A DNA stretch of 64,000 nt. Source: an uncultured Bacteroidota bacterium (GTDB lineage: Bacteria; Bacteroidota; Bacteroidia; UBA4408). The notes below the pieces were generated by a model. The model worked only from the letters and a program-made list of their open reading frames with translations, made no database searches and had not been told where the DNA came from. The first letter of the stretch is position 1. The number at the start of each line of letters is the position of its first letter. A program made the translations under genes and the position numbers. Below are positions 2,729-22,268 of this stretch, piece by piece. The DNA lies in NCBI GenBank assembly GCA_903831265.1, contig CAIKXD010000028.1, positions 9,414 through 73,413 on the forward strand, given 5' to 3'.

Positions 2729-5700
2729 TTATTTAATAATTATTTTCTTTGTTACTAATGAATTATTTGATTGAATTTTAACCATGTAGATTCCTTGAGC
2801 TAAAGAAGGCAATTCTACAGTTGAAATTCCTTTACTTAAATTAACACCTTGTTGCATTAATAGCTTACCTGACATATCGAACAATACAACATCAGAAGCT
2901 GCTGCATCACCGTTATTGATAATACTTAATGACTCATTGTTATTAAAGAAATCAACATCATTTAAACTTACTTCGCTATCAGATAAAGCTACTTCACTAT
3001 TTTCGTAGTTTAAGTAAAATCTGTTGTTGTAAATAGAATTTGATAAAGCCACGCTGTATTTTGCACCAGTCTTTAATTTAACTTTTTTGTTGGCTTCAAC
3101 GTCTACCAAGTAAGCATTCAAATTGTTTTCAGTATTAGAAAATTCGGCCACGCTGAAAGTATAAATACCATCAACCTTAGCAATTAAATGCAATGGAATA
3201 CTTCTAGAAGGAATTAGATTTTCGAATGCCTTAATAGCAAGAATTCTGTTGTCTATAACCATACCTAACTCAGGGTGAGTTTCAGTTGGGTTATTCATCA
3301 TTTTAGCCATATCAATTTCTGGGTTGTAGTTTTCTGTACCGCCATTAACAGTACCAATTGCTAACTGATCAACACCATCTTGATTTTGAACATTTAACTT
3401 AACAATATTTTTAACAACTGCATCTCTATTGAAAGATGGCGAGTTAGAGCCATGTCTGATAGTGTTATCAGTAATTAAAGTACCACCAGCAGGAGTGCTT
3501 GTAGTAATTGCTACAGCTTGAGATGTAAAAATAGTATCAGTCATACCAAAAGTACTTAAGCCTGGAGCAGCACCGTTATAAAAACCGTAACCACTATTTG
3601 CAGCCGACCATCCATAGTATCCATTTTGCAAACTCACCTGACCTGGTAAATTTCTTAAAACCGAAAATCTAATTGGAGATGGATAAGGATTACCAATGAT
3701 ATGAAATCCACCATTTGTAGCAGGAAGTACATTTGACAATGGGCCATTATTTGCAGGACCAGTTACATCAAGTGTTCTTGCTAAAGAATTATGCAAAGTA
3801 GCAGAATATCCTACCAATGAATTTGATATTGGCTGACCAACCGCACTTTCCCAAGGAGTTACAGGAAGCGTGTTAGCTTCGTCATATGTCCAAATAGTTG
3901 GTGCATTTGGAGGCGCTGGAAGAGCCACGTTAGTTGCATAAGTATAAGGAAATAAACCTTGAACAACATAATCATCACCCCAAGCAGTTGTTGTAGTTAA
4001 GCCAGAAACTGGGCAAGAAATATATCTTGTTTTTGCTGGTGTAGCAGTAAGATATCTTTCTACAGTAACATTACCAGTTACGTTTGCAGTACCTGCACCA
4101 CTAATAATTCCTTGTCTTGTTGGGTTTGAAGATAATATCAAAAATCCATTACTATTTAAAGTTCCGTCAGTTACTGTAACAGTTCCTAAAACTTTCAAAG
4201 TTGATAAAAGCGTTGAAGTTGTAGAAGGCGTATTAATAGTTAAGTTATTAATAAAGCCATTGTTTTTTAAATTACCAACTGAACCAGAACCTGTAAAGTT
4301 AAAATTAGCATCAGTACCGAAAGAGCTAAATGATCCAGTACCAGTAATTGTCCCAGAAAAGTTAGCTGTTAAAGCAGCAGCGCCAAATTTATAACTAGCA
4401 GAACCAACCAAGTTTAAATTTACAAAACTGATATTTTTTTGTACAGTTAAAGTAACACCTGTTGAAACAGTAACAGCACCTAAAGGCAAGCTTAATAAGC
4501 TAATTGCTCCAGTTCCTGTACCACCAATTGTTCCACTACTTAAGAAGTTGATGTTACCGCTACCAGCAGTAATTGATAATGGATTATTTGAGTTATTAGT
4601 AATACCACCAGTTAAGTTTATTGCAGATGAACCAGTTCCATTTACAGTGAATTGACCAGTTGATGAAATTGTTAAACTAGTCATTGAAAGTGCGCCTGTT
4701 AAAGAAGTTGTAATAGAGGCACCAATAGTTAAGTTTCTGTATGTTCTTCCATTTACTTCAAAGCCATTAACAGTGTTAAATGTTTGGTTACTTCCTGGTC
4801 TAAATTCAACTGCACTTAAAGGTGCAAATTTTTGGAAAGGATTTTCACCACCATTATGAATGTAACTTGCTCCTGTTTCGAATTGAACTGAATTAGTTAT
4901 TGCAGTTGGACCACCAAAAGCAGCACCCAAGTAACTAACACCTGTAGTAAAAGAAGATCCAGTTTTAAATTTAACTGCACCAGCCACACTACCAATAATA
5001 CTTGAACCTGTATTTGAAATAACAGCACCAAAAATATTTGCAGTAGCATTTCCAACAAGTTTTATTGCTGAACCAACACCACCATTAATAGTTAAAGTTG
5101 AACCTGCATCTACTCTAAAATCATCGGAAGTTAATGAGTTACCATTAACTAATAATGAACTAGCGCCATCAATAAATAACGTAACGTTAGAATTATTTTG
5201 TATTTGTAGTGTACCTATAGTTTGTGCAGGTACATTGTCAATTACAGAAACTGAAGAAACTGTAGCACCAATAACTAATCTATCGTCAGCAGAAGGATTT
5301 GTTCTTGATGGTGTCCAATTTGCTGCTGTATTATAGTTGAATGGACCAGCACCAGCTTGATTCCAATTATATACAGTACCAGTATTAGAGGTAATTTGAC
5401 TTGCATTAGCTGTTGAAGAAATAAAATAGTTTTCACCTCCTGCAGCACCGTTATATTCAATGGCTCTAAAGTGATAAGTAGTATTTGGAGTTAAACCAGT
5501 TACTGTAACCACATTTCCTGTGCCATTGTTATTATAAACAACCCAATTACCTGATCCTAATTGATCACCTAAAGAGATAGCTGAATTAGCTACGTAGGTA
5601 GTTGCATCAGTTGGGTTAGTGTTTACTAAGCTACCTGATTTGATAAGCAATAATCTTTTAGCACCATTTCCACCACTCAAATTTACTTGAATTGAATTAG

Positions 5701-6586
5701 AAGAAACCGAACCAAAAGTAATAGTACCATTTGAAGTTGGCTCACCACCTAAAGTAACACCTAAATCACCTTTTAAACTAGGAATTGAAAGTTCAGCACC
5801 TGTAGGATTTAAAGCTACATAATTTCTAACTATAGTTCCAGCATCATTAGTGATTTGCAAATTTAACTCATAATGTACAGTTCCAGTAGTAGTTACCTGA
5901 CCTAAAAATACTCTGTTTGTACTTGTTGGCCCTGACATACCTGCAGTTCCTGAAGCAGCTAATACCGCAATTGAACCATTAGATAAGATAAAACTTCCAC
6001 TAGCTTGACTAACATCGCCAAAAACATTATTGATTGCCAATAAAGTTGCAGCATCAGCAGCAATTTGAACATCTTGTAAAGTACCATTAGTAAATCCATC
6101 TCTAGTGTTAAGTGTAGCACCTATAGAAGGGTCATTGTTTAACAATAAACCATTTGCATTTACTACAGTTCCAACGCCATTATCTTCTGTTTTCAAAATA
6201 CCTACTTGCGAAGTAGCTGGGTTGTTATTGTTAGTAGTAGCACCAATTGATAAATATGAATCAAGCATTACTGTATTATCAGCAGCTTGCGCTTTTGTCC
6301 AATTTGGTATTGAAGCACCTCTATCTGTATTATTGAAAAAGGTACTAGAGCTAACAAACTTTAGATCATGACCTGAAGTACCATAAACAGCTTGTAATTT
6401 AAAGCCAGTTGAAAGATCTGCAAAGAATCTATACGTAACAGATCCAACCGGTAAAGTACCCGCACTTCCTGCTGCATCAGCTGCATTAGAAACGTAGTAC
6501 TTCTCAACGATTATATTCTCTAACCCTTGCGCAAAGGAAAAACTCCCTGTTGCAACAAGCATTAGCATGATTAGTATTTTTTTCAT
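2729..6586 (-). CDS. Giant (1285 aa) T/S/N/G-rich secreted surface protein, T9SS cargo, with the conserved N-terminal 'VEKYY' paralog domain
   Basis: Signal peptide MKKILIMLMLVATGSFSFAQ. The N-terminal ~270 aa align with the 367/368/457-aa paralogs (IIVEKYY...LPVGSVTYR...NTVMLDSYLS...GILKTEDNG...TNRV...LN). A long low-complexity beta-rich body follows. The C-terminal T9SS sorting domain is ...LAQGIYMVKIQSNNSLVTKKIIIK. Confidence 0.85.
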   Translation of the reverse strand: MKKILIMLMLVATGSFSFAQGLENIIVEKYYVSNAADAAGSAGTLPVGSVTYRFFADLSTGFKLQAVYGTSGHDLKFVSSSTFFNNTDRGASIPNWTKAQAADNTVMLDSYLSIGATTNNNNPATSQVGILKTEDNGVGTVVNANGLLLNNDPSIGATLNTRDGFTNGTLQDVQIAADAATLLAINNVFGDVSQASGSFILSNGSIAVLAASGTAGMSGPTSTNRVFLGQVTTTGTVHYELNLQITNDAGTIVRNYVALNPTGAELSIPSLKGDLGVTLGGEPTSNGTITFGSVSSNSIQVNLSGGNGAKRLLLIKSGSLVNTNPTDATTYVANSAISLGDQLGSGNWVVYNNNGTGNVVTVTGLTPNTTYHFRAIEYNGAAGGENYFISSTANASQITSNTGTVYNWNQAGAGPFNYNTAANWTPSRTNPSADDRLVIGATVSSVSVIDNVPAQTIGTLQIQNNSNVTLFIDGASSLLVNGNSLTSDDFRVDAGSTLTINGGVGSAIKLVGNATANIFGAVISNTGSSIIGSVAGAVKFKTGSSFTTGVSYLGAAFGGPTAITNSVQFETGASYIHNGGENPFQKFAPLSAVEFRPGSNQTFNTVNGFEVNGRTYRNLTIGASITTSLTGALSMTSLTISSTGQFTVNGTGSSAINLTGGITNNSNNPLSITAGSGNINFLSSGTIGGTGTGAISLLSLPLGAVTVSTGVTLTVQKNISFVNLNLVGSASYKFGAAALTANFSGTITGTGSFSSFGTDANFNFTGSGSVGNLKNNGFINNLTINTPSTTSTLLSTLKVLGTVTVTDGTLNSNGFLILSSNPTRQGIISGAGTANVTGNVTVERYLTATPAKTRYISCPVSGLTTTTAWGDDYVVQGLFPYTYATNVALPAPPNAPTIWTYDEANTLPVTPWESAVGQPISNSLVGYSATLHNSLARTLDVTGPANNGPLSNVLPATNGGFHIIGNPYPSPIRFSVLRNLPGQVSLQNGYYGWSAANSGYGFYNGAAPGLSTFGMTDTIFTSQAVAITTSTPAGGTLITDNTIRHGSNSPSFNRDAVVKNIVKLNVQNQDGVDQLAIGTVNGGTENYNPEIDMAKMMNNPTETHPELGMVIDNRILAIKAFENLIPSRSIPLHLIAKVDGIYTFSVAEFSNTENNLNAYLVDVEANKKVKLKTGAKYSVALSNSIYNNRFYLNYENSEVALSDSEVSLNDVDFFNNNESLSIINNGDAAASDVVLFDMSGKLLMQQGVNLSKGISTVELPSLAQGIYMVKIQSNNSLVTKKIIIK

Positions 6587-6616: not shown

Positions 6617-8284
6617 TTAATCGCAAGATTGATTGAATTCTCCTAATAATTGAAGGAAATCTGCATTGTTTGTAACACCATCGGTATTTACATCGGTAGG
6701 GCAAGCAACAATACCTGAAGTAGCTGCAACTATATTTAAAATAGCCCAATCAGATAACCATGATTTTTTACCTGGCTCAAATGCACCTCTGTAATTTGCA
6801 GCTGTATAAAAACCATCAACTGGAGCAGCACATGTAGTAGCAACTAAATCTGGAACAGCGTCATATTTATCAGTTACAGCATTAGTAGCATAATCCATTA
6901 CATAAGTATAGTCGAAATTTGGCAAAGAAGCTACTGAAGTATTATTATCAGTTGTAAACTTTGTGTTATCTAATGCTAATGTACCGTATGTATATACAGA
7001 GTTGTTTTCTATTGCCAATGGAATTGAGCAATTTACAAAAGTATTACATTTAATTTGTAGTGTTCCGCTTGTTGCAAAACCTGCTTGCCAGTTACCATAA
7101 GCTTCGTTTGAACCATCTGATGTGTTTGCTGGAGGTCTGCTGTTTTTGATTTTATCAATAACAACACCTCTTTCATAGTTTGCAACGATGCAATTATAAA
7201 CTTCACCTTCTGTTCTTTCTTTAAAATTAAAACCAGCATCGCCAGAGTTATCAGCAGTAGCAGCACTTTGTGGTCTACCGATAAATGTTCCATTATATAA
7301 TTTTGGATGTGATCTTGGTGTAAGATTTGTAGTGTTATCATCACCATCAGCTTCAATACCATTATCAGTTAAAGTGTTACCACCATTATGTCTGTTTAGG
7401 TTAAAGAAAAATTGCACTTTACCAGTCCAACCTAAATCCCAGTCTAAAGCATCATCATCACCCCAATAAGTAGCGATATATTTTAAATTTACATTTCCAC
7501 CAAATAATTCGATACCGTCATCTGCAAAAGAGGTTACTTCAATATGATCAATAGTTGTACCTTGACCAACTGAACATAAAGTTAATGAATTTAACTCGTT
7601 ACCTGCTGCAATAATATCTCCAGCATGTCTGATAGAAATGTATCTCATGATACCTGAATTATCGTTAGCATCAGATCCACCATACCATGTTCTAGCATCT
7701 AACTCAGCATTTGAAATACCTTCTGGAGCACCTGTTCCATCTGGCTGACCTGCCACTTGTAAACCTGAAGCATTTGCAGAAGTTAAGTTGTTTGGTGCTT
7801 TACCACAAACTAAAATACCACCCCATTTACCACCATTTACACCACCTGCATTGTTATTGTAGTTACCAAGAATGTTATCGCTTGTAATATCTTCTTCAGC
7901 AGTAAAAACAATTTGACAAGTTGGTGAACCTGCTGCAATTATTTGACCACCTCTTTCAATAACTAAAGCTGATGCTTGACCACCACCTGGGTTATTTAAA
8001 TCGCGACCTAAAATAACGGTACCTGGATTAATAGTAATTGTTTTGTTGTTTGGTACGTAAATTTTTTCTTTAATCAAGTAATTGTTGTTGCAAGTTAATA
8101 CTGTATTTACAGCATTTAACTCCCCAAGAGTTGCCAATGTTGACAAGTCAACTGTTGGACGTGTGTTTACCGGAGGACAACCGCAATCAGCCCCCAAATT
8201 GTTTTGATTTTGCGCCTCGCTGCTTGTAGTTGCAAGGGTTAAAACAGCCGCTAGGCTAAGTAATTTTGATACTGTTTTTTTCAT
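6617..8284 (-). CDS. Secreted 555-aa protein, paralog of 17446..19122, from an unnamed TonB-dependent-receptor-associated family; dockerin-like C-terminus
   Basis: It has a signal peptide. Blocks shared with the 558-aa paralog include NSG.(M/L)RY.SIRH.G..IA.GNELN.LTL..VG..TTI...E...DDGIE(L/F)FGG.VN.KY...DD..DWD..WTGK.QF. The C-terminus TDVNTDGVTNNADFLQLLGEF resembles a single dockerin/EF-hand loop rather than a T9SS C-terminal sorting domain. Confidence 0.8.
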   Translation of the reverse strand: MKKTVSKLLSLAAVLTLATTSSEAQNQNNLGADCGCPPVNTRPTVDLSTLATLGELNAVNTVLTCNNNYLIKEKIYVPNNKTITINPGTVILGRDLNNPGGGQASALVIERGGQIIAAGSPTCQIVFTAEEDITSDNILGNYNNNAGGVNGGKWGGILVCGKAPNNLTSANASGLQVAGQPDGTGAPEGISNAELDARTWYGGSDANDNSGIMRYISIRHAGDIIAAGNELNSLTLCSVGQGTTIDHIEVTSFADDGIELFGGNVNLKYIATYWGDDDALDWDLGWTGKVQFFFNLNRHNGGNTLTDNGIEADGDDNTTNLTPRSHPKLYNGTFIGRPQSAATADNSGDAGFNFKERTEGEVYNCIVANYERGVVIDKIKNSRPPANTSDGSNEAYGNWQAGFATSGTLQIKCNTFVNCSIPLAIENNSVYTYGTLALDNTKFTTDNNTSVASLPNFDYTYVMDYATNAVTDKYDAVPDLVATTCAAPVDGFYTAANYRGAFEPGKKSWLSDWAILNIVAATSGIVACPTDVNTDGVTNNADFLQLLGEFNQSCD

Positions 8285-8468
8285 TGTTTTGGTTTTAAAT
8301 AATTAATTGGATTAGTAAATTTTACGTGTACAAAGATGATTTATAACCTTAAAAATAATGGTTGATTTTCTTTATGTTATCTTTACTAAAACAAATACAA
8401 AAAGACAAGAGAGTATTAACACAATGTTAATAGCAAGCGCACTTTGCTAATGAAATATTAACATTGAT

Positions 8469-8819
8469 TTATTTTGTATCTGTTCCGAAGTAAATGTGGG
8501 AATCTTGATAAAACTCGTCAAATAAATTTTTAAATTCTTGTAATTTAACCCAGTTAATTTTATAGATACTGGCTTGATTTCTTCCCACTGAAAAACGGGT
8601 AATTAAGCCTCCCTTATTTAAGGCTCTTAAATTTTTTTTTAATACAGTTACGCTAATTTGATGTTTAGCAATAAATTCATCATCGAAACAACTTTTATTT
8701 TTTGCTATACATTCAATAATGGCTACGCGAATGGGGTTGCCCATTAAGATACTTATTTTACCTATAGTAGTTTGCCTGTGCGTAAAATAGGGCAACACTC
8801 CTTTTTCTATAGAAAGCAT
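8469..8819 (-). CDS. Small winged-HTH transcriptional regulator, ArsR/SmtB-like
   Basis: The 116-aa protein contains ...GNPIRVAIIECIAK.....DEFIAKHQISVTVLKKNLRALNKGGLITRF.VGRNQ.SIYKIN, which fits an ArsR-type helix-turn-helix. The assignment is by motif only. Confidence 0.5.
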   Translation of the reverse strand: MLSIEKGVLPYFTHRQTTIGKISILMGNPIRVAIIECIAKNKSCFDDEFIAKHQISVTVLKKNLRALNKGGLITRFSVGRNQASIYKINWVKLQEFKNLFDEFYQDSHIYFGTDTK

Positions 8820-8869: not shown

Positions 8870-9631
8870 TTAGTCCTTAACACATCTTACACTTAAGCCA
8901 CAGTTTTTGTAGTCTTGATGCCTAAAAACTTTAGTACTTTTATAATCAAGGTACCTGTAAAAAGCTTTGCCATTTTCAGTTGCTGTTGAAGTCCACCAAA
9001 ATCCTGTTAGTTTTAAGCCTGGTTCACCCCAAATTCCATTTTGCTTTCTGCAACTTCCGGCTAGCGCCGAAAAACCACTTTCGTTGGTTGGCCAATTTTC
9101 AACTTCAGTTAACCAACCTTTTTTGCCCTCTAACTTGAGTTTACTTCCTTGATCAGTGCCTCTCCATCCAGTTTTTTCGATATCCGTTTGGGTCATTCCT
9201 AAAGATAATTCTAAAGCTTGCCAATCTTGTTCTGTAGCAATGTGCCAGCCAGCTGGAGCAATTTTTCTATTATCATTAACAGCAAACCAATTATACAACA
9301 AGCCCGGTGAGTTAACATCATTCTTATAGCTGCAATAGCCAGCTATGGAATCTTTCCAAAATTCATCAGAGGCTGCATTTCTAATTGGCGTTCCATCATT
9401 GTATGATTTTACACTTAAATTTTCTGCCATCCACCATTGATTGCCAATTTTTACAATCTTGTAATAATTGCTATCTACATCCATAATGGAATCATAAATT
9501 GGCGAGGGCACCAATTTAATTTCATCCTTTTTACAACTAAAAGGAATAAACATAACATTACAAATTAGCAATACTATTAGCAGCGGGTAAAAAAATGATT
9601 TTAAATATTTTTCTTGAAACAATCGTAACAT
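8870..9631 (-). CDS. FISUMP (Fibrobacter succinogenes major paralogous domain, TIGR02145) lipoprotein
   Basis: There is a lipoprotein signal (FIPFSCKKD). The hallmark FISUMP motifs are present: KIGNQWWMAENL, GLLYNWFAV, APAGWHIATEQDWQALE, SGFSALAGSCR, GFWWTST. Confidence 0.8.
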   Translation of the reverse strand: MLRLFQEKYLKSFFYPLLIVLLICNVMFIPFSCKKDEIKLVPSPIYDSIMDVDSNYYKIVKIGNQWWMAENLSVKSYNDGTPIRNAASDEFWKDSIAGYCSYKNDVNSPGLLYNWFAVNDNRKIAPAGWHIATEQDWQALELSLGMTQTDIEKTGWRGTDQGSKLKLEGKKGWLTEVENWPTNESGFSALAGSCRKQNGIWGEPGLKLTGFWWTSTATENGKAFYRYLDYKSTKVFRHQDYKNCGLSVRCVKD

Positions 9632-9643: not shown

Positions 9644-10954
9644 TTAATTCTTGATAAAAACCTTTCTTTGTTCATTATCTCCTACTCTTAACAGAAGATA
9701 ATAAATTCCATTATTTACATCTGAAATATCAATGCTTTGAACAACATTACCATTGTAATTGCCAAGATTTGTTTCAGCCTTTACTGTATTGCCTAGTGCA
9801 TTATTTATACTATAATAAATATCAGCCGATTCATTAAGCCAAATATTTATATTTAATAAATTATTTGCTGGATTAGGGTAAACAAAAAACCTAAATTTTC
9901 CGAGTGAAAATTCTGGACACACCACAGCAATATCTCTATCATTGCAATAGCCTGGATAACAGCACAAGCTCTGCACATTAAAATTTGCTTTTGCATCATA
10001 ATTACAAGCACTAGTATCCATACATCCTAGCACAATAGGGGTTTTGCATGAATCTGGCGCATCGCAACCATAAACATTTGAGTATTCTATAAAGTTAGCA
10101 TCCCTGCAACCACATAAAAAAGGATAAGATAAAAATGGGCTCAGCTGCTCATCAGCAAACAGCGTATCGTTATTGGCCACATACTTTATTTGTAAAGTTC
10201 CTCCTGTAGGATTAGGAATTTCTACTTCAATATTTAATTTAAAAGAAAGTTCACCTGAAGTAGTTAATTGAGCAATTAAAATTTTATTATCAACAGTATT
10301 TACACCTATTGTTCCGGAGTTTTGAATACCGGCATCATAACTCATAAATTCGCTTCCTTCAACTAAAGAACCAAAAATTGTTGAATCTGTTGTGCCTGTG
10401 GGATCAACAATACCGTTGCTACCCCAATTTGTTAATTGTAAATTATAATTTATTATTCCATCAGCAAGAGTTAAAGGAATGCCCATAGCAGGATTATTGT
10501 TAGCTAGCAGTGCACTATCATTATTGCTACCACCAACAAAAGAACCATTTGTATCTTCTGTTTTTAAAATTCCATGCAAAGTAGATGCAGCATTAGAAAT
10601 TTGTCCAAGGGTTAGCCAACTATCTAAAGCTACAGTATTTTCTTTGAACCTGTTTTTATTAAAGTCTTTGGCAAAAGTTTTACCTTCTATTTTGTGATTG
10701 TAAAAGGTGGTTGTTGTTTTAAAATTTAAAGGATGATATTGATCGCCATAAACGTTTTTCAGCACTGTTCCTTCTTTTAAATCAATATAAATCCTGTAGG
10801 TTATAGATCCAGCATCTAATTGACCACCGATAGTATCAGCAATATCGTTATTATCTGCAATATAATAGGTTTCAACAATTACATTTTCAACCTGCGCTTT
10901 CACCGAAAAGGAGAAGGCTATAATTAATGCTATTAAATTAATTTTTAGTTTCAT
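9644..10954 (-). CDS. T9SS cargo protein (paralog family; conserved N-terminal domain plus Cys-rich module plus C-terminal sorting domain)
   Basis: The start was moved to the internal MKLKINLIALIIAFSFSVKAQ, 8 nt after the receptor stop. The N-terminal domain VIVETYYIADNND...GSITYRIYIDL...NTVALDSWLTLG...GILKTEDTNGS matches the paralogs. A 10-Cys cluster (CGCRDANF...CCYPGYCNDRD) is present. The T9SS C-terminal domain is VYPNPANNLLNINIW...GIYYLLLRVGDNEQRKVFIKN. Confidence 0.8.
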   Translation of the reverse strand: MKLKINLIALIIAFSFSVKAQVENVIVETYYIADNNDIADTIGGQLDAGSITYRIYIDLKEGTVLKNVYGDQYHPLNFKTTTTFYNHKIEGKTFAKDFNKNRFKENTVALDSWLTLGQISNAASTLHGILKTEDTNGSFVGGSNNDSALLANNNPAMGIPLTLADGIINYNLQLTNWGSNGIVDPTGTTDSTIFGSLVEGSEFMSYDAGIQNSGTIGVNTVDNKILIAQLTTSGELSFKLNIEVEIPNPTGGTLQIKYVANNDTLFADEQLSPFLSYPFLCGCRDANFIEYSNVYGCDAPDSCKTPIVLGCMDTSACNYDAKANFNVQSLCCYPGYCNDRDIAVVCPEFSLGKFRFFVYPNPANNLLNINIWLNESADIYYSINNALGNTVKAETNLGNYNGNVVQSIDISDVNNGIYYLLLRVGDNEQRKVFIKN

Positions 10955-10961
10955 TTTATTC

Positions 10962-13900
10962 TTATAGCTTGTATGAAATTGACAAATTATAGTTGGTTCC
11001 AAATCTGTAACGATCAAAGTCTGCAGTAAATCCTTCAGGCAATTGATAAGACCTTCTTACAGGACTATTTAAAATATCTTTAATTGTTACAGTTACAGCG
11101 AATCTCTTTCCTAATTCTTTGGCAATTCTAAAATCTAACATATGTCGCGGTAACTCAAAAACATCGGGAACAAAACCGGGTTGTGATGAAACCACAGCCA
11201 ATCTTGGACCTTGAACATTATAAGCAATTGAAGTTGATAATCTTAAACTATCCATAGTGTAACTAATTATACCATTAATTACATAGGGTGCTTGGCCCGA
11301 CATTTGTCTAGTTAAGGTATCAAATGGCTCTACAACCTTAATATTATTTTTCACATAAATATTATTTTGAATAACTTCTGTTATAGATTGCGCTAAAGTA
11401 AGATTAGCTCTAAATTCTAATCCTTTCATAATTATCTTTCTGCCATCTAATTCAATTCCTTTTACATTAGATTCATTTGCATTTTGCCAACTAAATCCTT
11501 GGGTAGTTTGCACCAATTCAATATGATTAAAGAATTTCTTGTAAAAGAAACTCACAGAAATATTATCGCCATTTTCGAAATAAGATTCTAACCTTAAATC
11601 ATAATTATGAATATCAACAGTTTTAAGGTCGGCATTTCCGAATATGAAATTTCTATACTCATAGTCAAAAATTGTTGTTTCTGTTAACTCTCTTACACTT
11701 GGTCTAGCTATAGTTTTACTATAGTTTACTCTCAAGTTAATAGGGCTTGTTTCTAAATTTCTTAATTTGCAAATCACATTTAGGCTTGGCAATAAATTTG
11801 CTTGATTAATGGCCCCTGGATTTACCATAAACGCATCACCCGGCTGAAATCTTCGTTCATCAAAGGCTTCATATCCTATTGAGTCGAACTTAAATACATC
11901 GGCATAAATATTTGTATATTCTATTCTTGCGCCTGCTGATGCTCTTAAACGAGGAACGATGGTATAATCAAGAAGTGCATAACCTGAGTATATGTTAGTT
12001 CTTCCAATAGTATGATAGGAGTCTAAGTCGACCGCCAAATAAGATTTATTTATGGTCGTTTCTGGCAATCCACTTAAGTTAGTTTGCTCACTAAATTCAT
12101 ATTCAGAAAGATTGAAAAAACCCTGCAAATCTTCATTTTCAAAACCTGAAGCTGTAAAAGGTCCAGCAGAGTAAAAATATTCATACTGACGACTATCGCG
12201 TATGGTATTTAAAAAGCTACCACCAAATTTAAGTTTACGCGCTAAGTTCGGTTTTTCAAACAATGGCACTTCTATTTTAATGTTGGCATCTAGCAAATCT
12301 TCATTTAAATACCTGTAAAATCTACGGATAGGAAAGCCACCACCAATTGCATTTTGATTATTTGGAAGTAGGGCATAAGCTAAGCTTTTAAAATCGGGTG
12401 CCACACTTTTACCATTGGTGTACGATAAATTAAAGTTTAGTTTTGATTTAATAGTTGGAAAGTAATGTTGTGTTTTTGCCTGATAAACCAATTGCCTTCT
12501 TTGCTCATAAAATTGATCTTTTACAACAACATTATTTACCCCATTGGCAGAATCTAAAAAGGTTCTAACATTATTTACACCCAAGAAATTAGGCATAAAT
12601 AAAAATCCAATGGTATGATTGGGATGAACTTTGTAGGTTAATTGCAGCAAGCCACTGAGCCCGTTTGTTTCTTTTGTGGATTGCTGTTTTGCATTTAAAA
12701 TAAATGTTTGCGGCCCATTTACATCTGCAGGAAGCAATCTGTTTATATCCGAAACAGAATCATATTGCACAGCACTTGAATAGCGGAAGCCACCAATAAT
12801 TCCGAGAGGTCTTTTAAAAAGATTTACCTGGTTACCAATGCTAAAGCTTTGGCTAAAATTGAGCGGCGCTACTCTATACTTTGTATCCCAATTGTTTGGC
12901 AATGATTTACCAAATGCTGATGCTTTTGAATTGATGGCCCTGTAGGCTTTATTTCTATTTTCATTGTTTGAATTAAATGTATTTTTAGCAGCATTTACGG
13001 CCTCCAAATCATTAAACTGTCCTTTGTCTAATAAACCCAATTGCACCAAACCTAACTTAAAATAATCATCACTCCAAGGTGTATCTTTATTTACTCCAAT
13101 GGCGTTATAAAAATCTTCCAATCCTAAAACAACTAGCTGCTGATAAACTGTTGGTTCTTCAATAACAGGTTGATATGCCAAATGATCAATATCTCTTAGA
13201 TCACTATCATAACCTAACCATTCTGTTGAACTTCGCTCACTCGATACATATTGTCTAAAAGTACTTTGGCTATTGTAACCCACGGTACTTTCAACATTTA
13301 CCATTAATCTATCAGGAAAATCTTTTGTTTCTAAAGAGATGAGCGCCCCTGAAAAATCGCCTGCTAAATCTGCACTAGCTGTTTTGGTAATAAAAATATT
13401 ATCTAATAAACTAGAAGGAAATAAATCTAATTTAATGTTATTGGTTAAGGGATCCAAAGTAGGAATTACTAAACCATTTATTTGAGTTTTAACATATCTA
13501 TCGCCAATACCACGCACCGTAATAAAGGAACCACTAGATGACACTCCCGAAACTCTTGCAACGGCAGCTGCAGCAGTTGCATCACCTGTTTTTTTGATGG
13601 TTTCTGATGAAACAAAATCTATAGATGTAACAGAGTTTATTTTCATTTTATCAAGGTAGTAATCCTTTGCACGGTTTGCCTTTGCCTCTACTACTAATTC
13701 TTTTATTTCCTTAGTGCTTGATTTTAAGTCAAAATTCTTAATTAATATTTGACCATTTTTTAATGATATATTTTCCTCTACAGTAAGATATCCAATATAA
13801 GAAACAACAACAATTTGTGAAGTACTATCGGGTATTTTTATAGCATAATTTCCATCTAAATCGGTTGATGAGGCTATTAGTTTATTATTTTTTAATACTA

Positions 13901-14021
13901 CTAAACCACCGATCACTGGTTCCCCATTCTCATCAGTAACCTTTCCTCTAAGCGTACCTTGAGCTTTTATATTAATGATATTACTAATTAATATTATTAA
14001 TACGATGCAAAACCTTTTCAT
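10962..14021 (-). CDS. TonB-dependent outer-membrane receptor (1019 aa) with an N-terminal CarboxypepD_reg-like domain
   Basis: Signal peptide, then GKVTDENGEPVIGGLVV...TDLDGNYAI (carboxypeptidase-regulatory-like fold). A plug region follows (TAAAAVARVSGV...ITVRGIGDRY...INGL) and then a long beta-barrel ending in an aromatic-rich C-terminus. It is a paralog of 19212..22268. Confidence 0.9.
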   Translation of the reverse strand: MKRFCIVLIILISNIINIKAQGTLRGKVTDENGEPVIGGLVVLKNNKLIASSTDLDGNYAIKIPDSTSQIVVVSYIGYLTVEENISLKNGQILIKNFDLKSSTKEIKELVVEAKANRAKDYYLDKMKINSVTSIDFVSSETIKKTGDATAAAAVARVSGVSSSGSFITVRGIGDRYVKTQINGLVIPTLDPLTNNIKLDLFPSSLLDNIFITKTASADLAGDFSGALISLETKDFPDRLMVNVESTVGYNSQSTFRQYVSSERSSTEWLGYDSDLRDIDHLAYQPVIEEPTVYQQLVVLGLEDFYNAIGVNKDTPWSDDYFKLGLVQLGLLDKGQFNDLEAVNAAKNTFNSNNENRNKAYRAINSKASAFGKSLPNNWDTKYRVAPLNFSQSFSIGNQVNLFKRPLGIIGGFRYSSAVQYDSVSDINRLLPADVNGPQTFILNAKQQSTKETNGLSGLLQLTYKVHPNHTIGFLFMPNFLGVNNVRTFLDSANGVNNVVVKDQFYEQRRQLVYQAKTQHYFPTIKSKLNFNLSYTNGKSVAPDFKSLAYALLPNNQNAIGGGFPIRRFYRYLNEDLLDANIKIEVPLFEKPNLARKLKFGGSFLNTIRDSRQYEYFYSAGPFTASGFENEDLQGFFNLSEYEFSEQTNLSGLPETTINKSYLAVDLDSYHTIGRTNIYSGYALLDYTIVPRLRASAGARIEYTNIYADVFKFDSIGYEAFDERRFQPGDAFMVNPGAINQANLLPSLNVICKLRNLETSPINLRVNYSKTIARPSVRELTETTIFDYEYRNFIFGNADLKTVDIHNYDLRLESYFENGDNISVSFFYKKFFNHIELVQTTQGFSWQNANESNVKGIELDGRKIIMKGLEFRANLTLAQSITEVIQNNIYVKNNIKVVEPFDTLTRQMSGQAPYVINGIISYTMDSLRLSTSIAYNVQGPRLAVVSSQPGFVPDVFELPRHMLDFRIAKELGKRFAVTVTIKDILNSPVRRSYQLPEGFTADFDRYRFGTNYNLSISYKL

Positions 14022-14067: not shown

Positions 14068-15171
14068 TTATAGCTTAATTAATTTCTTTGTAGAAACCAC
14101 TCCATTTAAATTAATTTGCATAAAATAAATTCCTTTATTTAAGCGACTTAAATCAATGGTATCGCTATAATTACTATTTAATGTAGGAATTGAATTGGCG
14201 ATTACCTCTTTACCCTCCATGCTATAAATAGTATAAAACATATATTGTTTTTTGTTATCAGCATTGGATGACTTTACTTCAATATTTAAATTATCTTTAA
14301 TTGGATTGGGATAAATTTTGTAAACAGCACCTGTAGGGTTTAAATCTTGTAAGTTTGTTAAGTTACCCGAATCGTAAACTAATGCTGGGTGTTGAAATTG
14401 AGAGCCAGTAGGATTTTCAGCAACATATTGCTCTGTTCCTCCACCTGGTGTTCCTAATTGCAAATTAAGTTTAAAAGTTAAAACGCCATCTGTTGTTAAC
14501 TGAGCAATTAATACCCTGTTGGTATTTGCATCAGGACCAGTAGCACCACCCAAGGCTGCCCATGAACCATTATCTGTAGAAAACAAATTGCCAATAGTAC
14601 TATTACCAAATACATTAATTACTGAACTAATTCCAACTGCAGTAACAGAAACAGGCGTTCCTGCTAATAATCCATCCTGAGTTGATAAAGGAATACCTGC
14701 ATCAACATTTGCACTTTGTAAAATTGAACTAACATTGCATCCTGAACATGAATTAACATTGGTATTTAAACCATCGTCATCTGTTTTTAAAACGCCAAAA
14801 TAACCATTGCAAGCACCTCCTACAGACAACCATGAATCAAGCATCACCGTGTTTTTAGCTGAATTGTTTTTAGAAAAAGTTGGAGATGTACTTCCATAAT
14901 CCATATTGTTAAAAAACTGGGTGGTAGTTTCTATCCTTAATTCTTGACCTTGTAACCCAAAAGCCGCTTGAAACGTGTATCCTGCTGCCATATCTACATA
15001 AACTCTGTATGTTGTAGAACCTACAGGAAGAATTCCTCCAACAACATTCGCATTCGTATCATTAGCTTCAGAGATATAATATTTTTCAACGATGATATCT
15101 TCTAATCCATTTTGTGCTTGCGCATAAAAACATGCAAATAATAAAGGTAGTGCTAGTAACGTTTTTTTCAT
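14068..15171 (-). CDS. T9SS cargo protein (367 aa) of the 'VEKYY' N-terminal-domain paralog family
   Basis: Signal peptide ...FYAQAQ. The conserved N-terminal domain is present (DIIVEKYYISEAND...LPVGSTTYRVYVDM...NTVMLDSWLSVG...GVLKTDDDG...TNRVLIAQLTTDG). The T9SS C-terminal domain is ...IYPNPIKDNLNIEV...GIYFMQINLNGVVSTKKLIKL. Confidence 0.85.
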   Translation of the reverse strand: MKKTLLALPLLFACFYAQAQNGLEDIIVEKYYISEANDTNANVVGGILPVGSTTYRVYVDMAAGYTFQAAFGLQGQELRIETTTQFFNNMDYGSTSPTFSKNNSAKNTVMLDSWLSVGGACNGYFGVLKTDDDGLNTNVNSCSGCNVSSILQSANVDAGIPLSTQDGLLAGTPVSVTAVGISSVINVFGNSTIGNLFSTDNGSWAALGGATGPDANTNRVLIAQLTTDGVLTFKLNLQLGTPGGGTEQYVAENPTGSQFQHPALVYDSGNLTNLQDLNPTGAVYKIYPNPIKDNLNIEVKSSNADNKKQYMFYTIYSMEGKEVIANSIPTLNSNYSDTIDLSRLNKGIYFMQINLNGVVSTKKLIKL

Positions 15172-15198
15172 TTTTTTAAAATTTAAAATCTTTAATAT

Positions 15199-16305
15199 TT
15201 AGTGATTAACAATTAATTTCTTTGAGAAGCTATGAGTTGCATCTTCTATTTTTATAAGATATATTCCCGATTCGATGCCTTGCATAGAAAACTGATATCC
15301 ATCTTTAGAAACTGCACCAACTTTGCGCTGATCTAAAAGCACACCGCGGCTATCATAAAGTGAAATCAAACTGTTTTGCTCCATTTTAATCTTAGGTTTA
15401 ATGGTCAATATTTCATCGGTCAATGGATTGGGAAATATATCAATACCATTATTTTTTTCGAAGATTGCAATATCCTTTAATGAAGAAGGAGTGCTTACAG
15501 AATCGTTTAGCGCTGCCAATAAAATTGAACTAGTATCACCAGGCAAAGCCTCTGCTACATAGCGCTCAACCCCACCCGTAGGTGTACCTATTTGAACATT
15601 TAATTTATATTTTAGGCTACCGTTGGTAGTAATTTGAGCAATCAACACTTTATTTATTGCGCTATCTGCGCCAGTGGCACCAGACAAACAATACCATGAA
15701 CCATTTGTGGTGCTAAAAACTGGACCATTAGTTCCATCATTTTGGCTCCCAAAAACACCAATCTCTGTATCAATACCTATGCTTCCAAAAACACCTGGAT
15801 TACCTAATTGCAAGCCATCTTGTGTATTGATTGGAATGCCGCAGTTAACATCATCGTTTTGTAATACTTGAGGAGTTTCGGCGTTAACAACCGTTGCGTT
15901 GCTATCTGTATCTTCTGTTTTTAACACCCCAAAATTACCAATACACGCAGCGCCAGAAGACAGCCAAGAATCTAGCATCACCGTATTGTCTTTTGCATTA
16001 GCTTTTGTGTAATTAGGTTGAACATCACCTCTGTCTTCATTATTAAAAAATAAAGTTGATGTTTCTATTCTAAGCTCGTGACCCGGCAAACCATAAGCAG
16101 CTTGAAACTTGTAGTTAGGTAATAAATCTAAATAAAATCTATACGTAACAGACCCAACGGGCAGCTTACCTCCTACATCATTTACTGTAGTATCGTTGTT
16201 ATTGGATTTATAATACTTTTCAACGATTAAACCCTCTAATCCGTTTTGGGCTAAACTAATTTTAAGAAATAAAAAAAATAGTAGAATTGTAGCTTTACCT
16301 TTCAT
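15199..16305 (-). CDS. T9SS cargo protein (368 aa) of the 'VEKYY' N-terminal-domain paralog family
   Basis: It is a tandem paralog of 14068..15171 (GLIVEKYYKSNNND...LPVGSVTYRFYLDL...NTVMLDSWLSSG...GVLKTEDTD). The T9SS C-terminal domain is ...IFPNPLTDEILTI...GIYLIKIEDATHSFSKKLIVNH. Confidence 0.85.
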   Translation of the reverse strand: MKGKATILLFFLFLKISLAQNGLEGLIVEKYYKSNNNDTTVNDVGGKLPVGSVTYRFYLDLLPNYKFQAAYGLPGHELRIETSTLFFNNEDRGDVQPNYTKANAKDNTVMLDSWLSSGAACIGNFGVLKTEDTDSNATVVNAETPQVLQNDDVNCGIPINTQDGLQLGNPGVFGSIGIDTEIGVFGSQNDGTNGPVFSTTNGSWYCLSGATGADSAINKVLIAQITTNGSLKYKLNVQIGTPTGGVERYVAEALPGDTSSILLAALNDSVSTPSSLKDIAIFEKNNGIDIFPNPLTDEILTIKPKIKMEQNSLISLYDSRGVLLDQRKVGAVSKDGYQFSMQGIESGIYLIKIEDATHSFSKKLIVNH

Positions 16306-16665: not shown

Positions 16666-17292
16666 TTGAATAAAAAAGTATTAATTATTGCGCCTCATTT
16701 AGATGATGGAAAATTAGGTTGTGGAGGCACTATTACAAAGCTTTTAGACCAAGGCATGTTTATTTATTATGTGGCATTTTCTATTGGCAATATTGTTGAT
16801 GAGCATAATGTTAATGCTAATATTTTGTTAACTGAATGTAAAGATGCATGCAAAACTTTAGGAATTACTGATGATAAATTAATTATTAAACTATTTCCAT
16901 TTAGAAAGCTAAACGAGCACAGGCAAGAAATTCTGGAGATTTTAATTGATTTAAAGCGTAAAATAAACCCTGATATCGTATTTATGCCCTCCAGCCAATC
17001 AATACACCAAGACCACAAAGCTGTATACCAAGAAGGAATTAGAGCATTTAAACACAAAACTTGTTATGGCTATGATTTACCATGGGATACAGATAATTTC
17101 AAAACTTCATGTTTTTTTACTTTAGATAAAAGACAGCTTAACTTAAAAATAGCTTCCCTTAAAATGTATGCTTCATTAAAGCATAAAACCTACATGGAAG
17201 AAAACTTTCTAAAAGGTTTGGCGCGTGTTAGAGGCACTCAAATAAATGTTGAATTTGCAGAAGCATTCGAAGCCATTCGCACTGTAGTTTAA
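16666..17292 (+). CDS. PIG-L/LmbE family N-acetylglucosaminyl deacetylase
   Basis: It has the LIIAPHLDDG...GCGG metal-binding signature and a downstream HQDH motif. It is 208 aa. The apparent start is a TTG; there is no in-frame ATG before the catalytic motif. Confidence 0.8.
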   Translation: MNKKVLIIAPHLDDGKLGCGGTITKLLDQGMFIYYVAFSIGNIVDEHNVNANILLTECKDACKTLGITDDKLIIKLFPFRKLNEHRQEILEILIDLKRKINPDIVFMPSSQSIHQDHKAVYQEGIRAFKHKTCYGYDLPWDTDNFKTSCFFTLDKRQLNLKIASLKMYASLKHKTYMEENFLKGLARVRGTQINVEFAEAFEAIRTVV

Positions 17293-17445: not shown

Positions 17446-19122
17446 ATGAAAAAATTCTACACAATTGCAGCAAGCTTGCTTTTTGGTTTTACAAGCCTAC
17501 AAGCACAAAGCATTATTAACATTGTTGATGCCGACTTAGTAGGCGGTCAAACATACAATTGGACCAAAAACAACGTTTATGTTTTAGATGGCGTTGTATT
17601 TCTTGAAGATGGCGGCACTTTAAATATTGAAGCTGGCACAGTAATTAAATTTACCCCTAGAGCTGATGTTGGTAATCCATCTGCATTAGTTATTTGTCGT
17701 GGTGCTAAAATTTACGCAACTGGCACCGTGGCTGAACCAATTATTTTTACAGCAGAAGATGATGACATGGCAGATGGAACTGATTTAGGTCCAACAGACA
17801 ATGCACTTTGGGGTGGTGTTGTATTATTGGGAAAAGCTTTTACCGTAAAAAATGGCAACAATGAAGTAAATGTTGAAGGTATTCCTACAACTGAACCAAG
17901 AGGTGTTTATGGTATGCCAGCTGGAGCAAATATTGACAATGATAACTCAGGTGTTTTACGTTATGTTTCTATACGTCATGGAGGTCGTCAAATTGCGAGT
18001 GGTAGTGAATTAAACGGATTAACCTTAGGTGCTGTGGGTAGCGCTACAACAGTAGAATATGTTGAAATATATGCTAACTCTGATGATGGCATCGAATTTT
18101 TTGGGGGAACAGTAAATGTAAAATATGCTGCTGTTGCATTTACCGAAGATGATAGTTTTGATTGGGATGAAAGTTGGACTGGAAAAGGTCAGTTTTGGTT
18201 CTCTATCCAAAGAGATGATATTGCTGATGCTGGTTGGGAATGCGATGGAAGTACACCTAATGATTTAACACCTGCTTCTGATCCAATTGTATTTAATGGA
18301 ACACATATTGGTTCAGGTGCAGCTGCTGCTGCGGCCAATCCAATTGGATGGTTATTCCGTGCAGGTACTAAAGGCTATGTTGCAAATAGTATTGTAAGCG
18401 AAATGAAAGGTAAAGGAATTGAAGTTCAAGATAGCCCTTCAAATAGCAATGATGCTTATGCTCAATTAATCGCAGGAGAATTAATTATCAAAAACAATTT
18501 ATTCCACAATATTGGAAGTACAACAGTAATTGATGGAAGTGCTAATGGCATAATCAGAATCACTGCAAGTGCCGATGATGCAACTGCTGCGGCTTTAATT
18601 TCTCACTTAACTACAAACAGCAATCAAATAGCTAATCCTGCCCTTTATAATGTTAGCAGAACTCAAGATGGTTTGCTAGACCCACGCCCAAGTGGAACTG
18701 GAGCAGCTTATACAACTGCTTTAGACGCTTATCCTGCAGGTGATGCTTTCTTTACAGCAGTTAATTACAAAGGTGCTTTTTCAACTGCGTCAACCGACTT
18801 ATGGCTATCTAGCTGGTCGAGTTTAGCCAAAAACGGACATTTAGTAAATGTTACTGGGATCAATGAATATAACAATGTTGTAAATTCATTAATGCTATAT
18901 CCAAATCCAACCAAAGGAAATTTAAATATCGCTTACGAGTCAAATAAAAATGTATTGGTTCAAATTATCAATACACAAGGGCAAGTGGTAAAAACATTAA
19001 ACAACAAACCTTCAGTTGGTGCACCACAAACAGTGGATGTTTCTGACTTAAGTAAAGGATTGTATTTCATAAGCTTTACAAACGGTGATAATCAATTCAG
19101 TAAGAAATTAATTATTGAATAA
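17446..19122 (+). CDS. Secreted 558-aa T9SS cargo protein, paralog of 6617..8284 (unnamed TonB-dependent-receptor-associated family)
   Basis: Signal peptide ...TSLQAQ. It shares conserved blocks with the 555-aa paralog (see that entry). The T9SS C-terminal domain is LYPNPTKGNLNIAYES...GLYFISFTNGDNQFSKKLIIE. Confidence 0.85.
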   Translation: MKKFYTIAASLLFGFTSLQAQSIINIVDADLVGGQTYNWTKNNVYVLDGVVFLEDGGTLNIEAGTVIKFTPRADVGNPSALVICRGAKIYATGTVAEPIIFTAEDDDMADGTDLGPTDNALWGGVVLLGKAFTVKNGNNEVNVEGIPTTEPRGVYGMPAGANIDNDNSGVLRYVSIRHGGRQIASGSELNGLTLGAVGSATTVEYVEIYANSDDGIEFFGGTVNVKYAAVAFTEDDSFDWDESWTGKGQFWFSIQRDDIADAGWECDGSTPNDLTPASDPIVFNGTHIGSGAAAAAANPIGWLFRAGTKGYVANSIVSEMKGKGIEVQDSPSNSNDAYAQLIAGELIIKNNLFHNIGSTTVIDGSANGIIRITASADDATAAALISHLTTNSNQIANPALYNVSRTQDGLLDPRPSGTGAAYTTALDAYPAGDAFFTAVNYKGAFSTASTDLWLSSWSSLAKNGHLVNVTGINEYNNVVNSLMLYPNPTKGNLNIAYESNKNVLVQIINTQGQVVKTLNNKPSVGAPQTVDVSDLSKGLYFISFTNGDNQFSKKLIIE

Positions 19123-22200: not shown

Positions 22201-22268
22201 CCTATTATGCCGAAACATTTCAAATTGGAAGAACATTTGGCTTAGGAGTAAGCTTTAAAATCAAATAA
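19212..22268 (+). CDS. TonB-dependent outer-membrane receptor (1018 aa) with an N-terminal CarboxypepD_reg-like domain
   Basis: Signal peptide, then GKIIDKLTGEEIIGAVVKIDST...TDLSGNYNL. A plug region follows (MKQMTGANVEDGKFMVMRGLGDRYS...LNGLPIP) and then a C-terminal barrel (...GRTFGLGVSFKIK). It is a paralog of 10962..14021. Confidence 0.9.
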   Translation: MKNYCFKSLLFTFFLLQISAHVYSQNGNISGKIIDKLTGEEIIGAVVKIDSTNTATSTDLSGNYNLKVPAGNHTIVCNFISYRKIIVKNVSVKAGESITLDFTLESDNVEIKEVVIEAVQQRNTDASLISIQKKSFAVQDGISAQQMARTGSSNAAESMKQMTGANVEDGKFMVMRGLGDRYSIAQLNGLPIPSSDPYRNASSLDLIPSSFVDNIVTTKTFTPDQPGNFAGGNLNISTKSFPEKPYVTVNISQSMNTLSSMNGDFLSYQGGSTDWRGVDDDTRKVPLIALNDSIRDMINSSLYLDARKKSKDFEIERQLFNSSAKVFSNEFIAEKTGEANNESGVGYQLRQAFGLNNNYNKTPLNNNYSLAAGQRYVIGKTEIGMTIGGNYQRNFTHYNDGEINTFINTNTEKLFAYQALKETKSIDNPQLGGLANLAVKIAKKHTIGITGIYSNDAEKVARQQSGTFMGQVSDSRAQFNTNVLEFTQRELKTLVVNGSHSFKLLNGLDIDWSASNTNTRQYEPDLRYFAYTSVKDTADSVGANGDLVRYLDTAYYMNNAEFAFPYHFYRDLKDSQQQAKIDFTLNINKSQSFKIKWGGYYSSTKRKFEEYRFQMNNSGIQSSQKLLLDNYNGDLNAFLDSDNFGITDTTRNSQGAITRYATGWHYINQVNNRNFYTGQQDITAAYAMTVFSPLKNLKIITGARIESTNLNVASRDTNAIFYSINGDSIIDPGKLKLLDLLPSINTVYALTEKSNLRLAFSQTIARPNMRELAPFEQFDTKNGFYNVGNPGLKRTLINNFDIRYEFYTRPGEIIAVSAYYKTFKDPIIRAFNPKATIPELSFVNVDKAEVLGAEFEFRKSLDFISPFLHDFYINTNLTLINSRVDIPVKEIENSKNVDSTYAVESRPFQGQAPYIVNAILTYANPKIGHESSLSFNVSGPKLYSISLFATPDIYESPVPFLNFKTTQNVGKYWQFSLVMRNLLNAKVSKTQVYRGQTYYAETFQIGRTFGLGVSFKIK

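Follow-up and report, generated by a model that had tools for sequence, protein, structure and literature searches.

BH_tail, as we name here an exported beta-helix protein of 555 amino acids (aa) from an uncultured Bacteroidota bacterium (UBA4408), ends in a small cysteine-bracketed module that, judged by sequence comparison, is one dockerin-type repeat. This module occupies the position in which a paralog encoded nearby carries a type IX secretion system (T9SS) sorting domain. The gene (6617..8284, minus strand; stop codon 6617-6619), defined from the open reading frame (ORF) list and its translation, lies in a stretch of 64,000 nucleotides (nt) of contig CAIKXD010000028.1, assembly GCA_903831265.1, which is referred to below as the window. 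The window has a G+C content of ~33%, and its nearest genome records are freshwater Bacteroidia metagenome-assembled genomes, for example L001 from Lake Mendota, with 95% protein identity. The reading that we put forward, and hold at somewhat less than even confidence, is that BH_tail would be a Sec-exported beta-helix protein docked by its calcium- and disulfide-dependent repeat onto a partner from its own gene cluster.

The C-terminus of BH_tail reads ...CPTDVNTDGVTNNADFLQLLGEFNQSCD and is then closed by the stop codon. This module spans residues 528-555 (6620..6703, minus strand), as delimited by column statistics, hidden Markov models (HMMs) and a PDB profile search, and follows the consensus C-P-T-D-[IVL]-N-x-D-G-x-T-N-N-x-D-F-L-x-L-L-G-x-F-N-Q-S-C-x. 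C528 and C554 enclose it, a single residue standing beyond the latter; the ligand residues of its loop are D531, N533, D535, G536, N539 and D542, and a helix comes after the loop. The homolog search with BH_tail returned 393 matches at E<=1e-5, and the counts given for homologs refer to the best 120 of these 393, which range from 99% to 45% identity. A tail of the same 28 residues, with its Cys...Cys bracket and with no insertion or deletion, is present in 120/120 of them. Specifically, columns C1, D4, D15 and C27 of the tail are invariant, and the loop positions D531/N533/D535/G536/N539/D542 are kept in 120, 119, 120, 119, 117 and 120 of 120 homologs. The tail is also found in the orthologs with 38-48% identity of L006-L009, on genome and metagenome contigs, and a metagenome scan added 30 further BH_tail genes, each with a single C-terminal copy (30/30) and none with a T9SS domain (0/30). 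Alignments of this kind indicate that the tail is under selection, and the doubt left by a preliminary description of this locus, namely that the tail might not be conserved in orthologs, is thereby removed. The idea that the tail is far better conserved than the body was dropped, as the mean pairwise identity is 0.68 for the tail vs 0.56 for the body, with the best body segments at 0.69-0.73. A homolog search with a 42-aa tail alignment returned 27 short fragments only.

The assignment of the tail to the dockerin-type repeats, with a calcium loop and a helix, is based on the matches of its profile in PDB, on a relative that carries two copies of it, and on two-copy relatives that run across both available dockerin models. 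The profile, made from 33 tails, was searched against all PDB sequences and against 1.84 billion representative proteins. In PDB its top matches are solved type I dockerins, in particular 2y3n_B (E 2.2e-8), both of whose repeats are covered by the alignment, and next come 2ccl_B, 1ohz_B, 5nrk_B and 3ul4_B; proteins of the EF-hand class, calmodulin and S100 among them, stand below the dockerins, at E>=0.002. An EF-hand identity of the calmodulin type was rejected, because loop position 12 is Asp in 120/120 homologs, and not Glu, and there is no entering helix. The relative with two copies is P0279 (L011, 7678-9402), a full-length protein of 37% identity that shares the N-terminal motif and the order of neighbouring genes, and in which two tail copies stand in tandem; it is the only one of the family with two, a single repeat being the rule in 120/120 listed homologs and in 30/30 metagenome genes.

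Matched alone, the tail aligns with Pfam Dockerin_1 (PF00404) at positions 36-52 of 57, that is, with the second repeat, at 15.9 bits (E 0.016; gathering threshold 22.9), and with NCBIfam NF041540 (dockerin_GC) at positions 38-67 of 67, at 18.8 bits (cut-off 29); with the full BH_tail protein as query no Dockerin_1 match appears at E<=0.01. The comparison with PF00404 proposed in the preliminary description thus gives an alignment whose score stays below the threshold. Two-copy relatives, on the other hand, which include SprB-repeat, Ig, PKD, LTD, beta-helix and FISUMP proteins, cover positions 2-53 of 57 of Dockerin_1 at 17-25 bits, with one at 53 bits, and the whole 67-position dockerin_GC model at 22-31 bits, where P0284 alone passes (30.9). 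P0284 ends in ...CPTDINNDGITNNADFLLLLSRFNTTCNGCPEDINKDGYVNNSDFLILLGKFNQICE, that is, in two tandem copies of a Cys-bracketed sequence close to that of the tail, and in general the two copies inside one protein resemble each other. These data bear out the earlier description of the tail as half a dockerin flanked by Cys. The repeat is apparently closed by a disulfide, and the tail is best filed as a single-repeat, Cys-bracketed dockerin variant fixed in one subfamily of putative Beta_helix_4 proteins.

Dockerin-like modules beyond cellulosomes are widespread; reportedly, dockerin-like sequences occur on non-cellulolytic proteins in many phyla, mostly with unknown function and often with no recognisable cohesin. 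The module of BH_tail differs from these non-cellulosomal relatives by its defined single-repeat Cys-bracketed form, its fixation in one family and its invariant T9SS-anchored neighbour. With the type I dockerins (PF00404; 1OHZ, 2CCL, 2Y3N) it shares the 12-residue loop, with D/N/D/N/D at positions 1, 3, 5, 9 and 12 and Gly at 6, and the helix that follows, and, like those of cellulosomal enzymes, it is C-terminal on a secreted protein. It departs from them in several respects: a type I dockerin consists of two tandem repeats of ~60-70 residues in total, whereas the tail is one repeat of ~28 residues; the tail is bracketed by two cysteines and stays under the Pfam cut-off; and BH_tail belongs to a Gram-negative, T9SS-bearing member of the Bacteroidota and to a TonB-dependent receptor cluster, with no cohesin found among the ORFs scanned. 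The 'GC-type dockerin domain-anchored protein' family NF041540 is likewise a Cys-containing C-terminal module that ends, as the tail does, in ...G/N-x-x-C-x. The tail corresponds to half of this model, and its signature TNNxDFLxLLGxFNQSC differs from the ...WGPCP type of the best scorer, P0268 (54.9 bits). As a literature search found no paper on the 'GC-type dockerin' family, the word 'anchored' is to be taken as the curator's name and not as a tested function; the literature search also found nothing for PF28492 or for dockerin-like modules on proteins of T9SS organisms.

The other system with which the tail has to be compared is the T9SS type A sorting domain, which the paralog carries at the same C-terminal position, on the same fold, in clusters rich in T9SS cargo. 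This domain is a beta sheet or sandwich of 3-7 strands and of at least 43 aa, in contrast with the predicted loop-helix of 28 aa at the end of BH_tail. Even the shortest sorting domains known, of 43-55 aa, consist of a three-stranded sheet and possess motifs B, D (GxY) and E (a basic residue) (PMC11969387). The tail is unrelated to them in sequence and carries none of motifs B, D and E, and HMM scans of both the protein and the tail gave no PF18962 or TIGR04183 match in BH_tail. In other words, the tail is a T9SS sorting domain by no current definition.

The paralog (17446..19122, plus strand; 558 aa), identified from the ORF list, HMMs and BLASTP, consists of a body assigned through its homologs to Beta_helix_4 and a T9SS type A sorting domain (residues 484-558; nt 18895-19119, plus strand). 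The two proteins are 35% identical over ~470 residues (BLASTP, E 3e-60), in line with their initial identification as a pair of paralogs of ~555 aa each. The conserved blocks quoted at that time are present, except for the first of them, in which GNELN of one copy corresponds to GSELN of the other. The sorting domain, which had also been recognised at the outset, scores 61.6 bits with PF18962 (cut-off 27) and 53.5 bits with TIGR04183 (cut-off 23), and the more than 7,345 matches of the paralog's homolog search carry PF18962 together with PF28492 in nearly all cases. Conserved receptor genes accompany both paralogs, so that their description as receptor-associated stands; the two genes are indeed close to each other, in adjacent receptor clusters ~9 kb apart, although these clusters are divergent and the pair does not form one operon, as 'one locus' might suggest.

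On the plus strand, the T9SS paralog is followed after 90 nt by the gene of a TonB-dependent receptor in which CarboxypepD_reg, Plug and barrel domains are recognised (19212..22268; HMM), and this gene pair is kept around a relative of 60% identity (P0206) in a distant genome, on L018 and L019. There, genes for OmpR-type response regulators and for a histidine kinase border the pair, which suggests two-component control of the T9SS beta-helix and receptor genes. Between the divergent clusters of the window lies a gene for a PIG-L family deacetylase (16666-17292, plus strand), BshB-like and below the equivalog cut-offs, whose position is also kept in L001 and L005. For both receptors of the window the best match is TIGR01782 (TonB-Xanth-Caul), below its cut-off, and TIGR04056 matches the N-terminal domain alone of the plus-strand receptor (52 bits vs a cut-off of 368). 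A polysaccharide utilisation locus of the SusC/SusD type is defined by a SusC-family receptor together with a SusD lipoprotein, and the cluster of the window does not have this composition: no SusD family match was obtained in it by Pfam and NCBIfam scans.

The N-terminus and the body of BH_tail are characteristic as well. The signal peptide (residues 1-24; 8213..8284, minus strand), read from the sequence, has a predicted signal peptidase I cut at ...SEA/Q, where the slash marks the cleavage; after it the N-terminal residue would be Gln, there is no lipobox, and all orthologs of BH_tail read ...A/Q(x)NLGA at the site. The residues that follow form a motif, Q-x-N-L-G-A-x-C-G-C-P (8174..8212, minus strand), which the alignment of homologs restricts to the tail-bearing clade: it is found in all orthologs inspected, including the one with 38% identity in L008, and is absent from the T9SS paralog. 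Its residues L30, G31, C34, G35, C36 and P37 are nearly invariant in the column statistics of the homologs, and residues 31-40 are modelled by AlphaFold2 (AF2) with a predicted local distance difference test score (pLDDT) of 91.

From about residue 43 to about residue 515 (6740..8158, minus strand) extends a right-handed parallel beta-helix, recognised from the AF2 model and from the PF28492 matches of the homologs. The model, obtained from a 64-sequence alignment, has a mean pLDDT of 83.7 and a predicted template modelling score of 0.86, and it gives substance to the beta-solenoid expected for this body. Precomputed PF28492 (Beta_helix_4) annotation is present on all 120 listed BH_tail homologs, including the 99%-identical P0001, for which it is the sole precomputed family and none of which bears a T9SS domain, as well as on all listed homologs of the plus-strand paralog; the local Pfam and NCBIfam libraries, of which the Pfam copy is without PF28492, gave no match in the body. 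In Foldseek searches against PDB the body finds weak, generic right-handed beta-helix matches (TM 0.2-0.3), among them PL6 alginate lyase, the adhesin PfbA, polygalacturonases, tailspikes and NosD, and neither a single-sequence nor a profile search detected a sequence relative of it in PDB; therefore, no enzyme class can be assigned to the body. Common to both paralog families is an invariant acidic ladder (DNSG 208-211, E230, DDGxE 255-259, DDxxDxD 277-283 and DxxxExD 307-313), together with one invariant arginine, R219. The combination of ladder and arginine suggests a groove for metal-assisted binding or catalysis. Several of the invariant acidic residues are lost in P0279, where DDGIE is changed to RGDGF and DDALDWD to LEDGIEY, and because of this loss P0279 may be non-catalytic or differently specialised.

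The cluster to which BH_tail belongs occupies the minus strand from 16305 to 2729, most of its genes being separated by short gaps, and its gene order is kept in orthologous loci down to 38% identity. At 30 nt downstream of BH_tail starts the gene of a T9SS-anchored protein of 1285 aa (2729..6586, minus strand), recognised by its sorting domain HMM, whose first ~270 residues (nt 5762-6529) constitute what we call the N-domain. An N-domain gene with T9SS domain stands directly downstream of the BH_tail gene in every genome locus that reaches that far and in 23/23 metagenome loci, and where metagenome loci have enough upstream sequence the receptor is found in 8/10 and the FISUMP gene in 9/10. 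The N-domain, of ~250 aa, is common to four T9SS-anchored proteins of the cluster, at 30-50% mutual identity, with copies identified by homology among the cluster proteins at 5762-6529, 14362-15111, 15490-16245 and 10085-10830 (minus strand) and the consensus GLENIIVEKYY...TYR.Y.DL...NTVMLDSWLS...LKTED...LIAQLTT.G. Its AF2 model, from an alignment of the four window sequences only, has a pLDDT of 40 and is unusable. N-domain genes are also near unrelated dockerin-tailed proteins in L010 and L015. On sequence and gene order, the 1285-aa protein is the best candidate for a partner of the tail.

The remaining genes of the cluster can be described from its head. Two tandem T9SS-anchored N-domain proteins (14068..16305, minus strand; Pfam and homology), of 367 aa (14068-15171) and 368 aa (15199-16305), precede the TonB-dependent receptor (10962..14021, minus strand; HMM), which has CarboxypepD_reg and Plug domains and is syntenic in L001, L002, L005-L009 and L011. 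The next gene encodes a further T9SS-anchored N-domain protein (9644..10954, minus strand; HMM and homology), of 457 aa as listed. Its real start is probably the ATG at 10954, ~21 codons shorter than the TTG at 11017, because paralogs and orthologs align from this ATG; as listed, the ORF runs 56 nt into the end of the receptor gene, apparently as an artefact of the TTG, and with the ATG there is a gap of 7 nt. It is followed by a FISUMP-domain protein (8870..9631, minus strand; PF09603, 149.7 bits; syntenic in related loci) with a lipoprotein-like signal, ...IPFSC then KKDE, which resembles the lipoprotein surface-export motif of Bacteroidota, so that this member of the receptor cluster would probably be a surface lipoprotein. 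Between the FISUMP and BH_tail genes lies a gene for a 116-aa protein (8469..8819, minus strand) with a weak ArsR-type helix-turn-helix (NF033788, 18.6 bits, below cut-off), found by tblastn in three close relatives only (L001, L002 and L005). After it, at 8422-8466, there is an AT-rich inverted repeat of 11 bp that folds marginally better than shuffled sequence (z -1.78). The idea that this hairpin is a strong terminator was dropped, its z being only -1.78 and the pattern scan not having called it.

In related loci the cluster can be longer. In L023, L031 and L090 the pair of beta-helix and N-domain genes is followed by a gene for a small protein (228-301 aa, stop-to-stop) that ends in two dockerin-like copies, and this by one for a small T9SS-anchored protein; the window has no such extension. 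Moreover, an ORF resembling GH1 beta-glucosidases, by reading of its C-terminal region, is located at most a few kb from the beta-helix cluster in L048, L052, L058, L060, L061 and L090. It is accompanied in 5/6 of these loci by two conserved genes of unknown function, which were not detected in L052, a contig of 4.6 kb; neither the GH1-like ORF nor its two companions were found in the window by tblastn. Such neighbours are hints that the cluster may be tied to the use of beta-glucosides or glycans.

The module is by no means restricted to the family of BH_tail. The search of the tail profile against the 1.84 billion proteins gave 14,453 matches at E<=1e-3, of which 488 reach E<=1e-10; the top matches are proteins with 2-15 dockerin-like repeats, and many look like secreted proteins of Bacteroidota ending in two tandem Cys-bracketed copies. 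The bodies that bear the module include, by Pfam, SprB, Ig, PKD, lamin-tail (LTD), beta-helix, FISUMP, trypsin-like peptidase, cupredoxin and FG-GAP/ASPIC domains, and those with SprB, Ig, PKD and LTD repeats are large adhesin-like proteins of up to 2,690 aa. The module is at the very C-terminus in 83 of the best 148 profile matches, 67 of these 83 stopping exactly one residue past the last cysteine. In proteins with a T9SS sorting domain of their own (for example P0351, P0287, P0288 and P0371) it is found right behind the signal peptide. Since it also occurs N-terminally on T9SS cargo, it should be seen as an ordinary folded domain of exported proteins, and not only as a terminal signal; by the same sequence evidence, it would work outside the cytoplasm. 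Its cysteines are even-numbered and come in pairs around each repeat, and the junction between two repeats is often C-x-x-C. In P0281 and P0401 one Cys bracket spans both repeats, and in P0299, P0375, P0389, P0391 and P0393 the first repeat lacks the opening Cys and a cysteine is found ~16-18 residues upstream instead. Paired cysteines of this kind would fit with disulfide closure.

Genes with the module can also follow one another. In eight metagenome loci (L035, L040, L041, L043, L044, L080, L084 and L085) there are series of 3-5 consecutive genes, every one of which terminates in a two-copy Cys-bracketed, dockerin-like module of the pattern ...FGC..GC..D.NGD......DLL.LLS.FGT.C. In L080 they encode, among others, a trypsin-like peptidase, a cupredoxin and a protein whose metal-binding motif is of the MopE type, and the genes with two-copy modules are adjoined in these metagenome loci by T9SS cargo genes and by genes for FG-GAP/ASPIC proteins that bear one copy. 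The idea that every dockerin-tailed gene precedes a gene for a T9SS-anchored protein was dropped, as outside the family this is the case for 6/45 genes, compared with a background of 32/330.

That the tail serves as a device of localisation or anchoring is plausible, the support for it being at the level of sequence. In the mechanism that we propose, BH_tail would work with the TonB-dependent receptor cluster, probably in the capture or processing of the substrate taken up by the receptor. The 12-residue loop D-x-N-x-D-G-x-T-N-x-x-D would bind one calcium ion, and the flanking cysteines would form a disulfide that seals the loop-helix unit and so provides the stability for which the second repeat, absent here, would otherwise be responsible. 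The conserved helix DFLxLLGxFNQS would then represent the docking face, able to hold BH_tail non-covalently on a partner encoded in its own gene cluster, a role for which the T9SS-anchored product of the gene 30 nt downstream, by way of its N-domain, is the best candidate. According to this model, BH_tail would be located at the cell surface, and the plus-strand paralog would reach an equal end by covalent T9SS anchoring. A broader version, which is quite doubtful, would regard Cys-bracketed modules as the mark of a cohesin-free assembly system in T9SS-bearing Bacteroidota, by which proteins devoid of a sorting domain are attached to, and possibly carried out with, T9SS-anchored proteins; here, BH_tail on the adjoining N-domain protein would be part of a cellulosome-like surface complex around the TonB-dependent receptor.

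A number of observations weigh against docking at the surface. By the known rules for Bacteroidota, a protein that has a signal peptidase I signal but neither a lipobox nor a T9SS domain should stay in the periplasm; being of this kind, BH_tail would therefore need an unknown export step to be docked outside. Neither a cohesin (PF00963) nor another known dockerin receptor was found by Pfam in the cluster or in the other large ORFs of the window that were scanned, so that the cohesin-like partner envisaged at first did not materialise, and searches with the N-domain gave no match in Pfam or among PDB sequences. Furthermore, 5/7 dockerin-tail loci outside the family have no N-domain gene nearby, and a T9SS-anchored next gene is not enriched outside the family. 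The tail alone, finally, remains under the cut-offs of both curated dockerin models, and in the AF2 model it is of low confidence (pLDDT 55-68), with a helix predicted at 540-547.

The absence of a receptor domain in the scans is also what would be expected if the tail were a structural cap, namely a lid, stabilised by calcium and a disulfide, on the C-terminal end of the beta-helix, which would bind no partner and take no part in localisation. Calcium loops are generally known to merely stabilise secreted proteins in many cases, and the clade-specific N-terminal CGCP motif could pair with the cysteines of the tail. A cap fitted to one body is not expected, however, from the portability of the module, which is found N- or C-terminally on many unrelated folds and is ~70% identical in BH_tail to repeat 1 of P0284. 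In addition, P0279 simply appends a second copy, and AF2 packs the tail on the body without confidence. Overall, we consider the cap explanation unlikely.

The same signal that burdens surface docking would be the natural starting point for docking in the periplasm, where a protein that has only a signal peptidase I signal, and lacks both lipobox and T9SS domain, stays by default. BH_tail would then never be exported across the outer membrane, and its tail would tether it to a periplasmic element, for instance the CarboxypepD_reg-like N-terminal extension of the receptor, a domain present on both receptors of the window; one paralog would be at the surface and the other beneath the receptor, acting on imported material. 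The oxidising periplasm fits a disulfide-closed module, and the receptor gene is upstream in 8/10 metagenome loci. Against this, the use of the module on large adhesin-like proteins and at the N-terminus of T9SS cargo points to the extracellular side, a receptor gene is nearby in just 1/71 module loci outside the family, and the invariant neighbour of BH_tail is the T9SS-anchored N-domain protein and not the receptor. This alternative appears rather unlikely.

A third explanation would make of the module a sorting signal, read by the T9SS or by another machine or riding out with T9SS cargo, and hence a functional substitute for the sorting domain. The frequency with which it is strictly C-terminal, with most chains ending one residue past the last cysteine, its presence on architectures like those of T9SS cargo with no sorting domain, the clusters of 3-5 consecutive module-ending genes adjoining T9SS cargo genes, and the very name given to the NCBIfam family are all in keeping with it. 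Nonetheless, we judge it improbable, given that the tail has neither the motifs of even the shortest sorting domains nor any PF18962/TIGR04183 signal, that the module is also N-terminal and internal in proteins with their own sorting domain, and that no dedicated processing enzyme is seen nearby. As for the tail being the remnant of a T9SS sorting domain in a decaying, frameshifted or truncated gene, nothing beyond the missing domain speaks for it and it is to be dismissed almost with certainty, because the ATG of the next gene, 30 nt after the BH_tail stop, leaves no room downstream of 6617 for a displaced sorting-domain-like frame and the tail is kept with no indel in 120 homologs and 30 more loci, at 38-99% identity.

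In Bacteroidota, the surface display of non-lipidated proteins is thought to rest on the T9SS sorting domain. The present analysis indicates that many secreted proteins encoded among T9SS cargo genes, including the BH_tail family, adhesin-like proteins with SprB, Ig and PKD domains, a trypsin-like peptidase, a cupredoxin-domain protein and FG-GAP proteins, end in a small conserved dockerin-type module instead. Should the tail be a calcium-stabilised cap only, it would be an ordinary domain variant. If it is a docking device, Gram-negative Bacteroidota would build multi-protein surface complexes on a cellulosome-like principle, and an export route for partners with no sorting domain must exist. 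The systematic occurrence of dockerin-like modules in place of T9SS sorting domains, together with the invariant T9SS-anchored neighbour, makes a testable lead; in particular, the invariant pair formed by BH_tail and the T9SS-anchored N-domain protein encoded next to it offers a concrete two-protein test case.

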